Notes under the pieces: generated by a model
Databases searched by the model: none
What the model was told of the DNA's origin: nothing
What the model saw: only the letters and a program-made list of their open reading frames with translations
Position numbers and translations under genes: made by a program
In this document: piece by piece, positions 405 through 60,816 of the stretch
Numbering within the stretch: the stretch's first letter is position 1
Layout: the number at the start of each line of letters is the position of its first letter
Source: an uncultured Thiotrichaceae bacterium
Lineage (GTDB): Bacteria > Pseudomonadota > Gammaproteobacteria > SZUA-229
Direction: 5' to 3'
DNA length: 64,000 nucleotides
Assembly (NCBI GenBank): GCA_964441285.1
Contig: CAYTUK010000005.1
Location: 3,596 to 67,595, forward strand

Positions 405-2078
405 ATGACCGCCGAAGCAACCGACACCACCCCGAACAATTTTATTCGCACGATTATTCAGGACGATCTGAGCGCAGACAACCACCGCTGCATTCAAACG
501 CGGTTCCCACCCGAACCGAATGGATATTTACACATCGGGCACGCAAAATCCATCTGTCTGAATTTTGGTATTGCTGAAGATTTTAATGGCAAATGTAACC
601 TGCGATTTGATGACACTAACCCTGAAAAAGAAGATGATGAATATGTAAACGCAATTGAAGCCGACCTTCGCTGGCTGGGTTTTGAGTGGAGTCAGCTGCA
701 TCATGCCTCGGATTATTTTGCACAACTGTATGACTATGCCATTGATTTAATTAAGGCAGGCAAAGCTTATGTGGACTCACTTAGCGCAGAACAAATTCGT
801 CAATACCGTGGCACATTAACCAAACCAGGCAGGGAAAGCCCCGACAGAAACCGCAGCATCGAGGACAATCTTGATTTATTCTCACGCATGCGGGCGGGCG
901 AATTTAAAGATGGCGAGTATTTACTGCGTGCAAAAATTGATATGGCCTCGCCCAATCTGAATATGCGTGACCCGGCACTGTATCGCATCAAACATACCCA
1001 CCATCAACGCACGGGTGATGCCTGGCCAATCTATCCAATGTATGATTATACGCATTGCATTTCTGATGCCATTGAAAATATTACCCACTCATTATGCACG
1101 CTGGAGTTTGAAGACCATCGTCCGCTCTATGACTGGGTACTCGATGAGGTCAAAACTCTGGCGCACCCCCAACAAATTGAGTTTGCACGACTGCAACTAA
1201 AATACACCATCACCAGTAAACGCAAACTGAATCAGCTGGTAACAGAACACCATGTTGAGAGCTGGGATGATCCGCGTATGCCCACCCTTTCCGGCCTGCG
1301 TCGACGCGGTTACACACCTGCCTCCATTCGCGATTTCTGTAATCGCATTGGGGTAACCAAAAAAGACAGCTTCATTGAAGTGGCCGTACTGGAAAACTGT
1401 ATTCGGGAAGATTTAAACGAACATGCCATTCGTGTTATGGGGGTGTTAAATCCACTAAAAGTTACCATCGAAAACTATCCTGAGGATAAAACCGAAGCAT
1501 TAACCGCAAAAAATCATCCACAAAAACCAGAAATGGGAACACGCACGATTCCGTTCAGCAAAGTTATTTATATAGAACGCAGCGATTTTCTCGAAGCTGC
1601 ACCCAAAAAATTCTTCCGCCTTTCCATCGGTCGTGAAGTCCGCCTGCGTTATGCCTATTACATCACCTGCACCGACATAGTGAAAAATAAAGCGGGTGAC
1701 GTTATCGAATTAATTTGTCAGTACGACCCACAAACAAAAGGCGGATCTTCCCCCGATGGTAGGAAAGTTAAAGGCACCATTCACTGGGTGTCGGTGGTTC
1801 ACGCCATTGATGCAGACATTAATTTATACGACCGTCTGTTCACTCACCCCAATCCAGCTGCAACCGAAAATTTTATCGAACACATTAATCCCGATTCATT
1901 ACAGCAGCTCAAACAATGCAAACTTGAACCCTGTTTAGCGGATGCAGACACTAATTTACATTATCAATTTGAACGTACCGGCTATTTTGTTAAAGATATA
2001 AAAGCTGGAGACCTAACATTCAATCGCACCGTGACACTGCGTGATACCTGGGCAAAACTGGATAAGCAAAACAGTTAA
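405..2078 (+). CDS. glnS: Glutaminyl-tRNA synthetase
   Basis: 557 aa with FIRTII...[17 protein letters not shown] (class I HIGH) and a full-length GlnRS-like sequence. Confidence 0.95.
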
Positions 2079-2244
2079 TCGTATTTTACCGCACCACATA
2101 TTGATAGAGCACCTGTCCATGCAGCGCCGAATTGCCTAAGCAGCCACTACAAGGCCATAACCAGGTTACACATACTCTGGCGACACCGTTGAAGGAAAGC
2201 CACTCCCTTTAAATTCATTGAGTTCCGAAAAAAGTAAACGACTT

Positions 2245-2266
2245 ATTACTGAAATGGATGAAAAGG
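2245..2266. repeat. Solo left terminus (ATTACTGAAATGGATGAAAAGG) of the palindromic extragenic element family
   Basis: It is identical to the first ~22 nt of the full copies at 13001 and 15377 but has no core. Confidence 0.5.
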
Positions 2267-2547
2267 CAAAAAATATGACACTATTTGTCATCATTCCCCT
2301 ACACAACTATCCTGATTAAACCGACAGAAATAATTAGCGATATTTCTTTTCAATTGATAAAGTGCTCGTCACTGTTTCAGCGTGAGCTGTACAGTCTTTA
2401 AATGATCTAAAAAAGGAAAACCTCAAATGGAAATTCTTAAATTTATCGGTAATGAAATTAGCTATTTTTTTAAATCGTGGCTGGATATTTCTATACAGAA
2501 AATTCAGCAAATTCTCAATACTGGAAAAACCGGACTTTAAACAACAT

Positions 2548-2675
2548 ACTAACAGTACAGATGAAAAGGATACTCATTGTTCAAGACCGTTAGCCGCAAG
2601 AATGCGGGTGTCGAGTCTACAGAGATATATTCACCACAGTCTTAAACAATGAGTATTCTTTTCATTCGTTTCAGC
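2548..2675 (+). repeat. Palindromic extragenic element, full copy D (arm 2560..2587, core, arm 2639..2666)
   Basis: Left arm gatgaaaaggatactcattgttcaagac pairs with right arm gtcttaaacaatgagtattcttttcatt at 25 of 28 positions. The core is cgttagccgcaagaatgcgggtgtcgag. The termini are ctaacagtacagatg on the left and cgtttcagc on the right. Confidence 0.8.
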
Positions 2676-2699
2676 AATAAAACACTAAGGAGCAATAAA

Positions 2700-3437
2700 A
2701 TGGATTTAACAGGATGTCTATCAAACACAGGAAATAAAACAAGCATTACTGCATTTCTTGCCATGAGTTCACTAACTCTGAGTTCACTAATTTTTACCGC
2801 AGAGGCAAATGCCGCCATTATTATCAATGAAGTTGACTATGACCAACCCGGAAAAGACCGTGCCGAGTTTATTGAACTGTTTAATAATGGGAGCCATCGT
2901 GTTTCGCTTGAAGGGTATAGCATTAAGCTAATAAATGGCGCAAAAAATACCACTTACCGGACCATTAACCTGGATACATTCAATATGAATGCAGGTGGTT
3001 ATTTTGTTATCTGTGGTGATTCCACTCGAGTTGAAAACTGTAATTTTGATTTCACAAATAAAACCGGCTGGATACAAAATGGCGCTCCTGATGCACTGGC
3101 ATTATATGATCAACGGCATATTGTGGATTCGCTATCGTATGAAGGCAGCCTGTCGCCATATACAGAAGGCGCGCCTGTTATTGCCAAAGACAGCAACAAA
3201 CTCATCACTGACCTGTCTCGCCTGCCAAACGGGATTGACAGTAACGTCAATCGTACTGACTTTAATTTAGGATGTATCACACCGGGTACAGCCAACATTG
3301 CGGGAACAGGTAACTGTTCAACAGTGAGTGTGAGTGCAGTTCCTGTTCCTGCAGCTATCTGGCTATTAAGTTCAGGTTTGGCTGGTTTTATAGGTATCGG
3401 TTATAAAAAGAAGATAAATAAAACAGTTACATCCTGA
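2700..3437 (+). CDS. Secreted lamin-tail-domain (LTD) protein with a C-terminal VPLPA/PEP-CTERM-type sorting signal (putative exosortase substrate)
   Basis: An AAGGAG RBS lies 8 nt before ATG 2700; the six-frame ORF start at 2649 runs through the repeat element. There is an N-terminal hydrophobic signal (…AFLAMSSLTLSSLIFTAEANA). The LTD-like segment is IINEVDYDQPGKDRAEFIELFNNGS. The C-terminus is VPVPAAIWLLSSGLAGFIGIGYKKK, that is a motif followed by a TM helix and a basic tail. Confidence 0.8.
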   Translation: MDLTGCLSNTGNKTSITAFLAMSSLTLSSLIFTAEANAAIIINEVDYDQPGKDRAEFIELFNNGSHRVSLEGYSIKLINGAKNTTYRTINLDTFNMNAGGYFVICGDSTRVENCNFDFTNKTGWIQNGAPDALALYDQRHIVDSLSYEGSLSPYTEGAPVIAKDSNKLITDLSRLPNGIDSNVNRTDFNLGCITPGTANIAGTGNCSTVSVSAVPVPAAIWLLSSGLAGFIGIGYKKKINKTVTS

Positions 3438-3450
3438 CACGCCTTTAGCC

Positions 3451-3485
3451 GGGTAAAAAAGTAGCATTATGCTGCTTTTTTACCC
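3451..3485. terminator. Bidirectional rho-independent terminator between the convergent LTD gene and tyrS
   Basis: gggtaaaaaagtagca-ttat-gctgcttttttaccc is a 15-bp stem with one U·G pair, and it has A/T runs on both sides. Confidence 0.6.
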
Positions 3486-3490
3486 TTTAG

Positions 3491-3575
3491 TTACTGAAAC
3501 GGATATTTATGGTTCAAGACCGTCAGCAGGGATGCGATGTCGAGCCGACATGGATGTATTGGCAGCGTGTCGCTG
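3491..3575 (+). repeat. Palindromic extragenic element, copy E (left arm and core present; right arm degenerate)
   Basis: ttactgaaacggatatttatggttcaagaccgtcagcagggatgcgatgtcgagccgacatggatgtattggcagcgtgtc. No matching right arm is visible before the tyrS stop. Confidence 0.65.
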
Positions 3576-3588
3576 ATTTGAAATAATT

Positions 3589-4788
3589 TTAACGTACAGA
3601 AAGTTTTGCAAACTTGCGTTTACCTACCTGGAAAACAGCCTCGGTACCTGATTGAATTCTGATTGATTTATCCGCTATTTTTTCACCATCAATTTTTACT
3701 GCACCCTGCTGAATCATCCGCATAGCATCACTGGTGCTAGAACACAATCCTGCGTCTTTTAATAAATTGGCAATCGGATAACCTTCATCGGATGCATCAA
3801 AATTCAATTCAGGAATATTATCCGGTATTTTATTTTTAGCGAACTGCGCAATAAAGCTTTGTCGTGCTGATGTTGCTGCCTGCACAGAATGAAACCGTGT
3901 AATAATTTCTTCCGCCAGTAAAAACTTGACATCGCGTGGATTTTTACCCTGATCAATTTCCTGCCTGAAACCTTCGATTTCAACCATTGGGCGGAAACTT
4001 AATAATTCAAAATAACGCCACATTAACGCATCAGAAATTGACATGATTTTACCAAACATATCATTGGGCGCATCATTAATACCAATATAATTGTTCAATG
4101 ACTTGGACATTTTTTGCACCCCGTCCAGCCCTTCGAGAATCGGCAGAGTGAGTACACACTGTGGCCTTTGTCCGTGTTGTTCCTGTAATTGACGCCCCAT
4201 TAACAAATTAAACTTCTGGTCAGTGCCACCCAGTTCTATGTCCGCTTTCATCACCACTGAATCATAGCCCTGAATTAAAGGATAGAGAAACTCGTGTATC
4301 GCGATCGACTGCCCACTTTTATAGCGTTTACTGAAATCATCACGTTCCAGCATTCTAGCAACCGTGCTGCGGGCGGCAAGCTTGATCATCTCGGCACTGC
4401 TCATTTGAGCCATCCATTGTGAATTAAACAAAATCTGTGTTTTCTCTTTATCCAGAATTTTGAATATTTGTGTCTGATAAGACACAGCATTATTCTCAAC
4501 ATCTGTTTGCGTCAGTGGCGGACGAGTTACTGATTTTCCAGTAGGATCGCCAATCATGCCGGTAAAATCGCCAATCAGAAACATGACTTCATGTCCCAGA
4601 TCCTGAAACTGGCGTAATTTATTGATCAATACGGTATGTCCAAGATGTAAATCCGGCGCGGTTGGGTCAAATCCAGCTTTAATACGCAGAGGTCGTCTTT
4701 CATTTAGCTTTGCTATTAACTCCTTTTCGACAAGAATTTCATCTGTGCCGCGCTGAATTATCTCAAGTTGCTGCTCAATGGACTTCAT
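3589..4788 (-). CDS. tyrS: Tyrosyl-tRNA synthetase
   Basis: 399 aa with [10 protein letters not shown] (HIGH) and KMSKS. It is divergent from the M23 peptidase, as in Pseudomonas. Confidence 0.95.
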
Positions 4789-12875: not shown

Positions 12876-13000
12876 TTAAAAATCTCACTTATCATCCGTT
12901 GTATTATTCAACGAAATACTGGTGCGAATAAATACGATTATTGTATTTATCATAACAGACCACACAGAAAATATAAGTTTAAACTCAGGAAATATTTTAT

Positions 13001-13132
13001 ATTACTGAAACAGATGAAAGGGCTACCTGGTGTTCGAGACCGTCAGTCGCAGGGATGCGGGTGTCGAGCTTACATGGAAGTATTTACAGCGTGTCTTGAA
13101 CACCAGGTAGCCTTTTCATCCATCCTGTTAGC
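13001..13132 (+). repeat. Palindromic extragenic element, full copy A (arm 13013..13040, core 13041..13092, arm 13093..13120)
   Basis: The 28-bp arms are gatgaaagggctacctggtgttcgagac and gtcttgaacaccaggtagccttttcatc. They are complementary except for two positions that would be G·U in a plus-strand RNA. The core is cgtcagtcgcagggatgcgggtgtcgagcttacatggaagtatttacagcgt. Confidence 0.85.
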
Positions 13133-15284: not shown

Positions 15285-15376
15285 AAACTCACCTCTATGC
15301 CCTTACCTTCATATAGAAAACAACGAATTCTAACAGACTAAACATTAATTCGATAACAAGATATTAATATGGACCT

Positions 15377-15504
15377 ATTACTGAAATGGATGGAACAGAT
15401 ACTTATGGCTCAAGGCCGTCAGCAGCAGGGATGCGGGTGTCGAGCTTACATGGATGGATTAACAGCGTGTCTTAATAATAAGTATCTGTTTCATCCATCC
15501 TGTT
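15377..15504 (+). repeat. Palindromic extragenic element, full copy B
   Basis: The arms are atggatggaacagatacttat and ataagtatctgtttcatccat. They are complementary but differ in sequence from the arms of copies A, C and D. The core is cgtcagcagcagggatgcgggtgtcgagcttacatggatggattaacagcgtgtc. Confidence 0.85.
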
Positions 15505-20308: not shown

Positions 20309-20388
20309 GGTTTATTGCTGTGGCCGACTGCCGCATGGAAACGGCAGTCGAGCGTACGGGGATGTATTTACAGCGGGTTACAGCAATC
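20309..20388 (+). repeat. Divergent variant (F) of the palindromic element; its right arm overlaps the apbC stop codon
   Basis: cgactgccgcatggaaacggcagtcgagcgtacggggatgtatttacagcg. The core hairpin is replaced by ctgccg/cggcag but keeps GTCGAGC…GTATTTACAGCG. The arms ttattgctgt and acagcaatcaa are different from the other copies. Confidence 0.6.
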
Positions 20389-33541: not shown

Positions 33542-33583
33542 ATTGTTTGTGTTATGTTGATTTTTATGAGAAATATCTAAGCT

Positions 33584-33714
33584 ATTACTGAAACAGATGA
33601 AAAGGATACTGGTTATTCAAGACACGCTGTCAATACATTCATGTAAGCTCGGCACCCGCATCTCTGCGGCTGACGGTTTTGAATAACCGGCATCCTTTTC
33701 ATCCATCTTAGTAA
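33584..33714 (-). repeat. Palindromic extragenic element, full copy C (inverted orientation) between parE and parC
   Basis: Arms gatgaaaaggatactggttattcaagac and ttttgaataaccggcatccttttcatc. The core is the reverse complement of the family core (gctcggcacccgcatctctgcggctgacgg). Confidence 0.85.
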
Positions 33715-36838: not shown

Positions 36839-37303
36839 TTACGCTTTAGCTTTTTTACGACTATGGCGCTTGCCTGGCTTACTTGCTTTGTTAATTTTAG
36901 CCATTTCTTTCTTCGTCCAGCTTTCAGCAAAGCGCATAACCGCTGCTTCTTTGCGTTCCGCCATCTTCAGTAACATTTCCTGACGTTTCCTGGATTCAGC
37001 TACTTCAGCCTTTGCGGCGGCGAGTGCAGCTGTGGTTGCAGCTACGTGCTCACGCATTTTCTGCTTAGCAGCAGACGCGATGGCATTTTTCTTCGCCGCA
37101 ACAACCTTTTTCTTCGCTACTAAAGCTTTCTTCTTAACTGCGGCAACTTTTTTCTTCGCCGCAGCATTTTTTGCAAGTTTTTTATTCACTGCTTTTTTTG
37201 CCGTTGTTTTTTTCTTAACTGTCTTTTTATTTACTGGTGTTTTCTTTTTAACTGCACGTTTTGTCGTCATTTTTTTCTTGCTTGCTGTAGAAGTTTGCGC
37301 CAT
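36839..37303 (-). CDS. Histone H1-like Lys/Ala-rich nucleoid-associated protein (AlgP/BpH1/Hc1-like repeats)
   Basis: KKKTPVNKKTVKKKTTAKKAVNKKLAKNAAAKKKVAAVKKKALVAKKK repeats followed by an Ala-rich helical tail. Confidence 0.75.
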   Translation of the reverse strand: MAQTSTASKKKMTTKRAVKKKTPVNKKTVKKKTTAKKAVNKKLAKNAAAKKKVAAVKKKALVAKKKVVAAKKNAIASAAKQKMREHVAATTAALAAAKAEVAESRKRQEMLLKMAERKEAAVMRFAESWTKKEMAKINKASKPGKRHSRKKAKA

Positions 37304-38263: not shown

Positions 38264-38330
38264 ACTAACAGTACAGATGAAAAGGCTCCCCTTGTTCAAG
38301 ACCGTCAGCCGCAGGGATGTATTCACACAG
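38264..38330 (+). repeat. Palindromic element, internally deleted/truncated copy G
   Basis: actaacagtacagatgaaaaggctccccttgttcaagaccgtcagccgcagggatg, then tattcacacag. The core is missing about 23 nt and there is no right arm. Confidence 0.65.
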
Positions 38331-60736: not shown

Positions 60737-60816
60737 TACTAACAGGACGGATGAAAAGGATATTTAATTATTCAAGACCGTCAGCCGCAGGGATGCGGGG
60801 TGCGTTTCAGTAATAC
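60737..60816 (+). repeat. Palindromic element, internally deleted copy H (left arm plus half core, joined directly to the right terminus)
   Basis: ttactaacaggacggatgaaaaggatatttaattattcaagaccgtcagccgcagggatgcgggg|tgcgtttcagtaatac. Confidence 0.7.

Follow-up and report, generated by a model that had tools for sequence, protein, structure and literature searches.

A predicted exported lamin-tail-domain protein with a VPLPA-CTERM-type tail at a conserved glnS-tyrS locus, and the secondary insertion of a MITE-like repeat predicted in its leader

In the window (the whole 64-kb stretch of DNA that was analysed) a gene coding for a 245-residue protein is preceded by a small ORF, faces the convergent gene tyrS and has a copy of a palindromic repeat on either side, here termed D and E (Table 1). 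A sequence-only reading of this DNA had delimited this 245-residue form, which agrees with the version called in public assemblies (P0001, 100% identical; L001, 6442-7179) and has an AAGGAG motif 7 nt before its ATG. It had also noted a frame running through the repeat from position 2649. Such a frame does exist and is the one given in the ORF listing (2649..3437 on the + strand, 262 aa), but the in-frame ATG at 2649 lies within the right arm of D and lacks a ribosome-binding site (RBS), and an orthologue with 75% identity (P0002) starts at the same MDLTG without any upstream extension.

Table 1. Features of the locus, in coordinates of the window
Feature	Position	Strand	Description
Solo terminal repeat fragment	2244..2266	+	23 nt, B-type end TATTACTGAAATGGATGAAAAGG; blastn to consensus 87%, E 0.022
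Candidate native promoter/operator	2275..2313	+	9/12 matches in promoter scan; putative
Palindrome ATGACAcTATTTGTCAT	2275-2291		overlaps the -35-like TTGTCA
-35-like TTGTCA	2285-2290		followed by a 17-nt spacer and a -10-like TATCCT at 2308-2313
Conserved small ORF	2427..2540	+	37 aa, MEILKFIGNEISYFFKSWLDISIQKIQQILNTGKTGL, own RBS; called in L001
Repeat copy D	2547..2679	+	full-length, 133 nt, palindromic, A-core-B' form, 82% identical to consensus
Shine-Dalgarno AAGGAG	2687..2692	+	7 nt before ATG 2700, outside D
LTD / VPLPA-CTERM-type protein gene	2700..3437	+	245 aa
Probable signal peptide	2700-2813		aa 1-38; cleavage after ANA
Lamin-tail domain (LTD)	2799-3143		aa 34-148
Linker			conserved Cys pair C192/C206
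Sorting tail	3339-3434		aa 214-245
Hairpin with A-run and T-run	3451..3485	.	GGGTAAAAAAGTAGCA-TTA-TGCTGCTTTTTTACCC; 16 pairs in terminator scan; conserved in L003
Repeat copy E	3491..3571	+	B-type left arm and core, right arm missing; 86% to consensus; both GGA loops kept
tyrS	3589..4788	-	convergent neighbour of the LTD gene; context of glnS-LTD-tyrS synteny

A search with Pfam HMMs detected the lamin-tail domain (PF00932) in residues 34-148 of the protein with 64 bits against a cut-off of 34.3 (E 2e-17), and residues 40-148 of its AlphaFold (AF2) model have pLDDT values of 73-89. When this model was compared with the PDB using Foldseek, the Ig-folds of lamin A/C, B1 and B2 constituted the 10 best and 16 of the top 17 matches (E 2e-6 to 3e-4), the top ones reaching E ~1e-6 with a target-normalised TM-score of ~0.68. 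The LTD call of the sequence-only reading is borne out by both the profile match and the lamin-like predicted fold, and by these two lines of evidence the gene product is a conserved LTD protein with a predicted lamin-type Ig-like beta-sandwich. Its N-terminus displays by eye a hydrophobic stretch and an ANA/A site directly before the conserved motif IINEVDYDQ, and in the alignment the signal peptides of the homologues, short and of classical type, fall in the same position; a signal peptide is, as judged by eye and by homology, probable. The domain resembles the N-terminal LTD of the extracellular nuclease ExeM (PMC6085458), in that 120 of 120 homologues match the ExeM profile over its first ~130 positions, the window protein over positions 10-128. 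However, unlike ExeM, the protein contains no nuclease or other catalytic domain, and the LTD is its sole recognisable module. Those homologues that JGI annotates as 'predicted extracellular nuclease' likewise have just the LTD and the sorting tail and no nuclease domain, and hence this name is unjustified; its correction is of modest value.

The LTD gene is also found between glnS and tyrS in L038, L039, L051, L053/L055 and L059, which represent five more distant lineages with a glnS 76-83% and an LTD 57-61% identical to those of the window. The earlier designation of the protein as accessory is not supported by this retained gene order, and the comparison indicates that the gene is ancestral at this position. 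The AAGGAG motif occurs 7-8 nt before the ATG at every homologous locus read, with the same spacing as in the window in L003, L037, L038, L039 and L053, and on this comparative evidence the RBS and start codon of the LTD gene are ancestral and not derived from the repeat. The small ORF shows 6 synonymous and 1 non-synonymous codon changes relative to L003, and orthologues of 36 aa (L039/L040) and 34 aa (L053/L055) precede the LTD gene; these were found by a motif scan combined with manual ORF listing, tblastn having returned the near-identical copy alone. It has no Pfam match and probably forms, as the first cistron, a two-gene unit with the LTD gene, which would be co-transcribed with the 34-37-aa ORF from a promoter upstream of 2427. 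The sequence of the candidate promoter/operator is conserved in L003. At the other end of the LTD gene, the hairpin with its A-run and T-run looks like a bidirectional intrinsic terminator common to the convergent LTD and tyrS genes.

The repeat to which D and E belong is represented in the window by four full and five partial pieces, and its seed TTCAAGACCGTYAGC has 7 matches there against 0.25 expected; a related Thiotrichaceae MAG (CAYXNL01) carries at least 27 copies. The element is a TA-flanked palindrome of 133 nt with complementary arms of 23-30 nt. TA stands at both ends of all copies, as would fit a duplicated TA target, the sequence of the empty site having diverged too far to reveal a lone TA. 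The 31 copies that were scored are without exception intergenic, many of them 0-30 nt after a stop codon, and compensatory changes are seen in 20 of the 23 pairs of the long stem (37 predicted pairs overall), D included. In tandem gene contexts the copies are oriented with the flanking genes in ratios of 13:1 by their ends and 12:2 by their core, with D, added by hand, counted in both. One copy lies on the same strand between parE and parC, and the element is thus tolerated inside gene tandems. By these sequence features it is a MITE-like interspersed repeat. It shares with Correia/CREE (NEMIS), ERIC, RUP and QMITE elements (PMC2649163, PMC10969869) a 100-150-nt palindromic organization with inverted-repeat arms and a conserved core, the TA-flanked, intergenic and multi-copy occurrence often beside gene ends, a core found in both orientations relative to the ends and, presumably, a co-transcribed hairpin. 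It differs from these in that neither a promoter-like site nor an IHF site nor a parent transposase was identified for it; the ORFs inventoried in the window included no conspicuous parent IS or transposase. A relationship to ERIC was rejected, as the consensus had no blastn match in 20,395 records of E. coli, a host of ERIC. An integron attC site was likewise rejected: there is a CTAAC/GTTAG-like end, yet only one such end per copy, and the copies stand one by one, dispersed among housekeeping genes. Strand-specific insertion of the IS200/IS605 type was also discarded as the source of the orientation bias, because the copies, checked in one 64-kb window and on single MAG contigs, follow the local gene strand and not one replication direction.

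Copy D starts 6 nt after the stop codon of the small ORF; from its other end to the RBS and the ATG of the LTD gene there remain 7 and 20 nt, respectively. The sequence-only reading had rightly recognized it and its placement immediately upstream of the RBS, but its bounds (2548-2675, 24 nt before the ATG) required correction. D folds as RNA with -47.1 kcal/mol (z = -7.05). Among the full-length copies in the window, D shows the greatest decay, and the GGA motifs of both its loops are mutated, these now being AAGAAU and AGAGAU. The partial copy E claimed earlier on the 3' side of the LTD gene is present, with its right arm missing. Its place is the stretch separating the shared terminator from the tyrS stop codon (3589-3591), where L003 has ~98 nt of unrelated sequence. 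Given that E is beyond the LTD terminator and 17 nt past the tyrS stop, in keeping with the habit of the family of settling 3' to stop codons, it is a separate truncated copy belonging to the 3' side of tyrS. The view that the gene is meaningfully bracketed by elements is thus not supported: E goes with tyrS and, with nine element pieces in 64 kb, chance alone would be expected to leave some gene with a piece on each side. The solo terminal fragment sits exactly where homology to the element-free L003 starts (2262).

The comparison of filled and empty sites bears directly on the origin of D. The D site is filled in the window and L001 and is empty in L003/L005 and L039. The relative L003/L005, whose LTD protein is 75% identical, lacks both D and E and has the same 37-aa upstream ORF and the same AAGGAG-N7-ATG arrangement; the 280 nt upstream are 91% identical to L003, as against 78.6% for the LTD gene itself. 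L039, also without the element, retains the small ORF and the RBS. In L053/L055 an independent insertion is found ~20 nt away, at the same junction of the small ORF and the LTD gene; this recurrence was not accepted as significant, being judged a 3-15% event given the density of the element. Since the element-free relative keeps the same RBS-ATG and the same upstream ORF, D is, by sequence comparison, a secondary insertion between the small ORF and the ancestral RBS of the LTD gene. The sequence-only reading had suggested that the expression signals of the gene may come from the element and had proposed comparison with element-free relatives. That comparison does not support the suggestion, as L003/L005 keeps the RBS, the upstream ORF and the conserved 280 nt, and nor does the promoter scan, which found no promoter-like site in D. 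Most likely, the decayed copy was inserted secondarily and would be carried passively in the transcript as an intercistronic hairpin of -47 kcal/mol, which could modulate read-through or mRNA processing.

A stronger role for D, namely as a selected cis-regulatory RNA of the LTD gene, i.e. a TwoAYGGAY- or Correia-type RNA structure between the cistrons which would control read-through, RNase III/E processing or the binding of a regulator, is unlikely. The consensus forms a 23-bp stem with the loops CCGCA-GGGA-UGCGG (loop AGGGAU) and UAC-AUGGAU-GUA, and thereby weakly resembles TwoAYGGAY (RF01731; Weinberg 2010, PMC2864571; 10.64898/2026.09.22.753630) in its long basal stem with, apparently, two successive hairpins bearing CAnGGAUG loops, as well as in its multi-copy occurrence, truncated copies and mobile-element-like spread in Pseudomonadota. 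A near-consensus copy (L006:3063-3184) aligns end-to-end to RF01731 with 36.1 bits (E 1.4e-4 in a 171-nt search; gathering score 43), a single match that is to be read as a lead and not as membership, because searches over such small ranges also give generic miRNA-hairpin matches, with E down to 3e-4. No match to RF01731 was obtained for D, copy 13000 or L010, nor did larger searches recover one, and Rfam at gathering thresholds gave nothing for the element in the window and 12 loci. A weak match to Ysr224 is recurrent, with 14-24 bits where the gathering score is 70. The first loop of the element, AGGGAU, departs from AYGGAY, and D lacks both GGA motifs. The loops of TwoAYGGAY have been proposed as Csr/Rsm sites (preprint 10.64898/2026.09.22.753630), and the alignment of the near-consensus copy to this family would be consistent with a regulatory function, as would the very stable hairpin of D, the compensatory changes that uphold the stem pairing of the repeat family, D included, the orientation bias relative to transcription and the independent copy at the same junction in L053/L055. 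Both GGA motifs are kept in 28 of 30 aligned copies, being lost from D and the copy upstream of parC; no csrA match was obtained in the window or the MAG loci with an approximate query sequence. Against a selected role of D stand precisely the loss of GGA from both loops in this strongly decayed copy, and the fact that the closest relative does without the element. Moreover, inverted-repeat covariation also arises in transposon ends that have no RNA function and, with an estimated ~15% of the intergenic regions of the window carrying a piece, a second hit at one junction is not very improbable.

That D supplies the promoter of the LTD gene, with transcription starting in its right arm as in the Correia elements of Neisseria, is distinctly unlikely. 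The idea draws on the fact that D ends just 20 nt before the ATG, so that expression of the LTD gene must depend on either read-through or a promoter inside D, the only place left for an LTD-specific one. An outward promoter would also explain the co-orientation of the elements with flanking tandem genes, and Correia and other MITEs do carry sigma-70 promoters (PMC10969869, PMC2649163). By eye the consensus offers a perfect -35 (TTGACA) with TATCCT downstream, and D a weak TTCACC-18-TATTCT (2630-2659). However, the spacer in the consensus is 19 nt, the candidate in D has only 8/12 matches, and a promoter scan found no promoter-like site in D or in the near-consensus copies L006 and L053. The LTD gene does not need the element, since the relative that lacks it shares the RBS and a highly conserved upstream region containing the candidate promoter.

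The reading of D as a passive secondary insertion leaves the protein itself to be placed. Its C-terminus, VPVPAA-IWLLSSGLAGFIGIG-YKKKINK, has the tripartite organization of motif, TM helix and basic cluster and ends 5 residues before the stop; it is the sole protein in the window with such a sorting tail. Conservation across the LTD family follows the pattern VPxPAAxWLFxSGLxGLxGxxRKK, with almost no variation in the VPxPA motif and the G/S-rich helix. The earlier proposal of a signal peptide with a VPLPA/PEP-CTERM-type tail holds for the tripartite architecture and for the family, where a TIGR03370 match with E <= 0.01 was obtained for 116 of the 120 homologues (lowest E 9.3e-9); the window protein itself falls under the curated cut-off of this model (19.6 bits, E 6.8e-4, against 25.35). 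It is likewise under that of PF07589 (PEP-CTERM; 13.5 bits against 20.7), its motif being VPVPAA and not PEP. The homologue P0065, among other orthologues, is named a VPLPA-CTERM protein by NCBI, and the related MAG locus L033 encodes two further ORFs with VPVPA/PEP-type tails (...VVPVPAALWLFGSGLLGLAGIARRKAS and ...VSVPEPGILALLALGVVLIGFAGKQ). VPLPA-CTERM (TIGR03370) substrates are associated with an XrtD-type exosortase. As stated in the sequence-only reading, no exosortase was found in the 64-kb window, here by ORF inventory, a screen of multi-TM ORFs and, for the 10 ORFs that were least obvious, a Pfam scan; multi-TM screens also found none in ~220 kb of the related MAG or within 10 kb of 84 homologous loci. 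This screening went by multi-TM ORFs, all of which resemble FeoB, RnfD/E, LptF/G, TatC, UppP, transporters and similar proteins.

In the model of the PEP-CTERM/exosortase system (Haft et al. 2006, PMC1569441) the genes of the substrates normally lie dispersed, apart from that of the exosortase. The LTD protein resembles such VPLPA-/PEP-CTERM substrates in its probable N-terminal signal peptide and in its C-terminal proline motif, hydrophobic helix of ~15 residues and basic cluster; it differs in scoring under both curated cut-offs and in the four conserved cysteines of its passenger, PEP-CTERM proteins being typically Cys-poor. It is very unlikely that the C-terminal segment is merely the membrane anchor of a tail-anchored periplasmic protein that is no exosortase substrate: although the sub-threshold scores of the window copy, its atypical end (YKKKINKTVTS instead of RRK) and the lack of an exosortase in the window or beside any of the 84 homologous loci would fit an anchor, the near-invariance of VPxPA and the G/S-rich helix and the match of nearly the whole family to TIGR03370 argue against it, as do the two further tails in L033, expected of many-substrate sorting, and the usual distance of substrates from the exosortase gene (PMC1569441). 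On the pattern of the PEP-CTERM/exosortase system, the LTD protein would be exported via Sec and held in the inner membrane by its tail, whereupon an exosortase encoded elsewhere might cleave it at the VPxPA motif and the product might be passed to the cell surface or the exopolysaccharide layer, with the LTD as a predicted binding module.

Thus, in conclusion, we consider it probable that the locus as a whole codes for an exported LTD protein of the VPLPA-CTERM type, that it is ancestral, and that D is a secondary insertion carried passively. A broader and likewise unlikely reading is that the repeat is a mobile TwoAYGGAY-like RNA module with two Csr/Rsm-type GGA hairpins that is kept sense in transcripts, its RBS-adjacent copies being tolerated only after losing both GGA motifs; if true, the family would be a post-transcriptional regulatory or sponge network spread by transposition, and the LTD leader would carry a 'disarmed' insertion. 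In itself, the finding matters little, given that the protein belongs to a large family named by NCBI and that a hairpin repeat inserted in a leader is a familiar event. Of modest value are the conserved 34-37-aa ORF paired with the LTD gene, an ORF that Pfam does not annotate and that may code for a partner or a leader peptide, and the repeat family, which is dense in Thiotrichaceae-like genomes, orientation-biased and structurally constrained. With this repeat the TwoAYGGAY class, which is poorly understood, may gain a compact, TA-flanked and clearly mobile form, and the filled and empty sites of the repeat could serve to test the effects of such elements on neighbouring genes.

On re-reading the region, the arrangement described in the sequence-only reading, namely a repeat, an RBS, the gene for a Lamin Tail Domain (LTD) protein and a second partial repeat copy, proved to be real, with repeat copy D ending 7 nt 5' of the AAGGAG. 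An ORF does likewise read through the repeat from position 2649 (262 aa in six-frame translation), but its ATG falls within D's right arm and no RBS precedes it. Public data contain the 245-aa form, where a 100% identical protein (P0001) is called at 6442-7179 of L001, a contig with the identical locus, and the orthologue P0002 begins at the same MDLTG.

Features of the LTD locus and copies of the repeat element (window positions unless a related locus is named)
Feature	Position	Strand	Remark
glnS	405-2078	+	5' neighbour
Small ORF	2427-2540	+	34-37 aa in relatives; own RBS
Small ORF, L003	327-440
Small ORF, L039	9830-9940
Small ORF, L053	6075-6179
Repeat copy D	2547-2679		full copy; between small ORF and RBS of LTD gene
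RBS AAGGAG	2687-2692	+	7 nt 5' of ATG at 2700
LTD gene	2700-3437	+	245 aa
16-pair hairpin with A-run and T-run	3451-3485		probable terminator common to LTD gene and tyrS
Repeat copy E	3491-3571		partial; between hairpin and tyrS stop
tyrS stop	3589-3591		convergent gene
Repeat copy 13000	13000-13131		full copy
Repeat copy 15376	15376-15504		full copy
Repeat copy, parE-parC	33583-33714	-	full copy
Repeat piece	2244-2266		partial
Repeat piece	20324-20378		partial
Repeat piece	38264-38319		partial
Repeat piece	60737-60799		partial

The suspected LTD-like β-sandwich was confirmed by a Pfam match to PF00932 over residues 34-148 (64 bits against a cut-off of 34.3; E 2e-17) and by an AlphaFold model built from 120 homologues (pLDDT 73-89 over residues 40-148, the remainder of low confidence), which among PDB structures comes closest to the Ig-folds of lamins A/C, B1 and B2 (E about 1e-6; target-normalised TM about 0.68). 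The JGI name 'predicted extracellular nuclease' reflects only a likeness to the N-terminal LTD of ExeM, whose profile NF033680 is matched over its first ~130 positions, by the window protein at positions 10-128. The LTD, without which ExeM still degrades DNA in vivo and whose role there is unknown (PMC6085458), is common to both; a catalytic domain is absent from the window protein. Its C-terminus, VPVPAA-IWLLSSGLAGFIGIG-YKKKINKTVTS, follows the three-part layout known from PEP-CTERM signals (PMC1569441). The call of a VPLPA/PEP-CTERM sorting signal thus stands for the form of the tail and for the homologues, 116 of 120 of which match TIGR03370 (best E 9.3e-9), but the window copy itself falls below both cut-offs (TIGR03370, 19.6 against 25.35 bits; PF07589, 13.5 against 20.7 bits). 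The family comprises 756 matches at E <= 0.001, mostly of 223-230 aa, with four invariant cysteines (C105, C114, C192 and C206) and a strongly conserved tail (VPxPAAxWLFxSGLxGLxGxxRKK), and one member is named 'VPLPA-CTERM sorting domain-containing protein' by NCBI. Given the conserved tail, the TIGR03370 matches and the NCBI name among its relatives, the window protein is, by orthology, a slightly degenerate member of the family.

The gene had been taken to encode an accessory surface protein, a view that its synteny does not support. In the related loci L038, L039, L051, L053/L055 and L059, where glnS is 76-83% and the LTD 57-61% identical to those of the window, it likewise lies between glnS and tyrS, and this block is followed by M23 peptidase, anmK, citrate synthase, erpA, bactofilin, DUF6776 and argC genes. 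It is therefore better described as core-like. In a second clade (L037, L043, L046, L047, L061, L064-L066, L068, L071, L072 and L076) the LTD/VPLPA-CTERM gene directly precedes a gltX-like gene that converges on it, and is not between glnS and tyrS; an aminoacyl-tRNA synthetase gene adjoins it in both clades.

The proposal that D supplies the expression signals of the gene found no support in the comparison with an element-free relative (L003/L004/L005), which encodes a 75%-identical protein, is without D and E, and retains both the small ORF and AAGGAG-N7-ATG. An AAGGAG is also present 7-8 nt 5' of the ATG in L037, L038, L039 and L053. Since relatives lacking D or belonging to other lineages keep this motif at 7-8 nt, D is an insertion whose edges lie 6 nt 3' of the small-ORF stop and 7 nt 5' of an RBS that is ancestral, and neither the RBS nor the start codon comes from the element. 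A promoter within the element likewise finds no support: the scan recovered no site in D or in the near-consensus copies of L006 and L053, and the candidates visible by eye (TTGACA-19-TATCCT in the consensus, TTCACC-18-TATTCT in D) are both weak. As only 20 nt part D from the ATG, transcription of the gene must either pass through D or begin within it.

Four lineages carry the small ORF directly 5' of the LTD gene; it is conserved as ME[IV]LK[FY]..NE.S.F.K...DISI.K[IL]... and matched no Pfam family. Between the window and L003 its codon changes are 6 synonymous and 1 non-synonymous, and the 280 nt upstream that include it are 91% identical, versus 78.6% for the LTD gene. Scanning of the + strand yielded one candidate promoter 5' of it, TTGTCA-17-TATCCT (2285-2313), the -35 of which is overlapped by a conserved palindrome, ATGACAcTATTTGTCAT (2275-2291; ATGACAaTATTTGTCAT in L003), that resembles an operator of the kind bound by dimeric regulators. 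In L053/L055, which shares its source metagenome with L001, a 92%-consensus element copy (L053 6174-6303 = L055 2569-2698) occupies the same small-ORF/LTD junction as an independent insertion; because it lies about 20 nt further 5', the element's TAC-TAA forms the stop codon of the small ORF. As about 15% of the window's intergenic regions hold an element piece, repeated insertion at this junction is not counted as significant.

The repeat was detected from a seed with 7 matches against 0.25 expected. A search of GTDB genomes with its 24-nt core pattern recovered at least 27 copies in the uncultured Thiotrichaceae MAG CAYXNL01, which at about 79% identity in gatBA is a different species, and one each in two further gammaproteobacterial MAGs. 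In two Novosphingobium matches the alignment does not extend beyond the pattern. The element is about 133 nt long with TA at both ends, and has 23-30-nt complementary arms around a nearly invariant 55-nt core. RNAalifold predicts a 23-bp stem with compensatory changes in 20 pairs; the two distant MAG copies share the core but differ over most of the stem sequence, and the predicted fold of D has an energy of -47.1 kcal/mol (z = -7). Each of the 31 scored copies falls between genes, many of them 0-30 nt 3' of a stop codon. Across the window and MAG loci L006-L036, copies in tandem gene contexts run in the direction of the genes, by 12:1 when judged from the ends (p = 0.003) and by 11:2 from the core, counts that leave out D, which adds one co-oriented case to each; within one contig its orientation tracks the local gene strand. 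With ends A = TACTAACAGGATGG... and B = TATTACTGAAACAG..., most copies read A-core-B' and about 8 of 35 B-core-A' (copies 13000 and 15376 compared with D and the parE-parC copy, and MAG loci L009, L013, L014, L025 and L026), so the core has been inverted between the arms; inversion is also reported for Correia elements (PMC10969869). Elsewhere in the window, three direct-repeat copies (37083-37159; 35-nt units at 21-nt spacing) lie in ORF 36839-37303 (-), which encodes a lysine/alanine-rich, histone-H1-like protein (…AKKKVAAVKKKA…).

In function and architecture this new element of the MITE kind is reminiscent of the Correia/CREE-type MITEs, TA-flanked intergenic inverted repeats around a conserved core that are co-transcribed as hairpins and for which effects involving promoters, IHF and RNase III are known (PMC2649163, PMC10969869). 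It is possibly a compact variant of TwoAYGGAY (RF01731), a family present in many copies, truncated ones among them, in Pseudomonadota, with 'mobile-element-like' expansion and loops proposed as Csr/Rsm sites (September 2026 preprint, 10.64898/2026.09.22.753630). The near-consensus copy L006:3063-3184 aligns end-to-end with this Rfam model (36.1 bits, gathering 43; E 1.4e-4), and its inner hairpin loops CAGGGAUG and CAUGGAUG coincide with the model's two CAuGGAUG loops. As neither D, copy 13000 and L010 nor the larger searches gave the match again, and generic hairpin matches reach similar E-values in equally tiny searches, membership is not established. GGA is present in both loops in 28 of 30 aligned copies, and both are lost only in D and the parE-parC copy, the two that a co-oriented start codon follows at 20 nt (LTD gene) and 41 nt (parC), which, with two cases, no more than hints at a tie to start-codon proximity. 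No csrA was found in the window and MAG loci.

A partial copy, E, does stand 3' of the LTD gene, but the supposed bracketing by elements is coincidental: E is separated from the LTD gene by the probable shared terminator and stands 17 nt from the stop of tyrS, with unrelated sequence at that place in L003, and belongs to the 3' side of tyrS. The region's best promoter-like match, TTGGCA-17-AATAAT (3559-3587, +; 10/12, with TG), is made of E's truncated end and flank and aims antisense into the tyrS 3' end.

As the sequence-only reading noted, no exosortase-like membrane protein was seen in the window; about 220 kb sampled from the related MAG gave none, nor did the 10-kb surroundings of 84 homologous loci, and such absence near substrate loci is normal for exosortase substrates. 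In the related Thiotrichaceae MAG, the adjacent ORFs L033 631-1176 (-) and 1264-1977 (-) bear sorting tails ...VVPVPAALWLFGSGLLGLAGIARRKAS and ...VSVPEPGILALLALGVVLIGFAGKQ (VPVPA- and PEP-type), which suggests that this lineage has several exosortase-type substrates. The LTD protein is an addition to a known, already-named family, and its mechanism is one that we infer from the PEP-CTERM/exosortase model.
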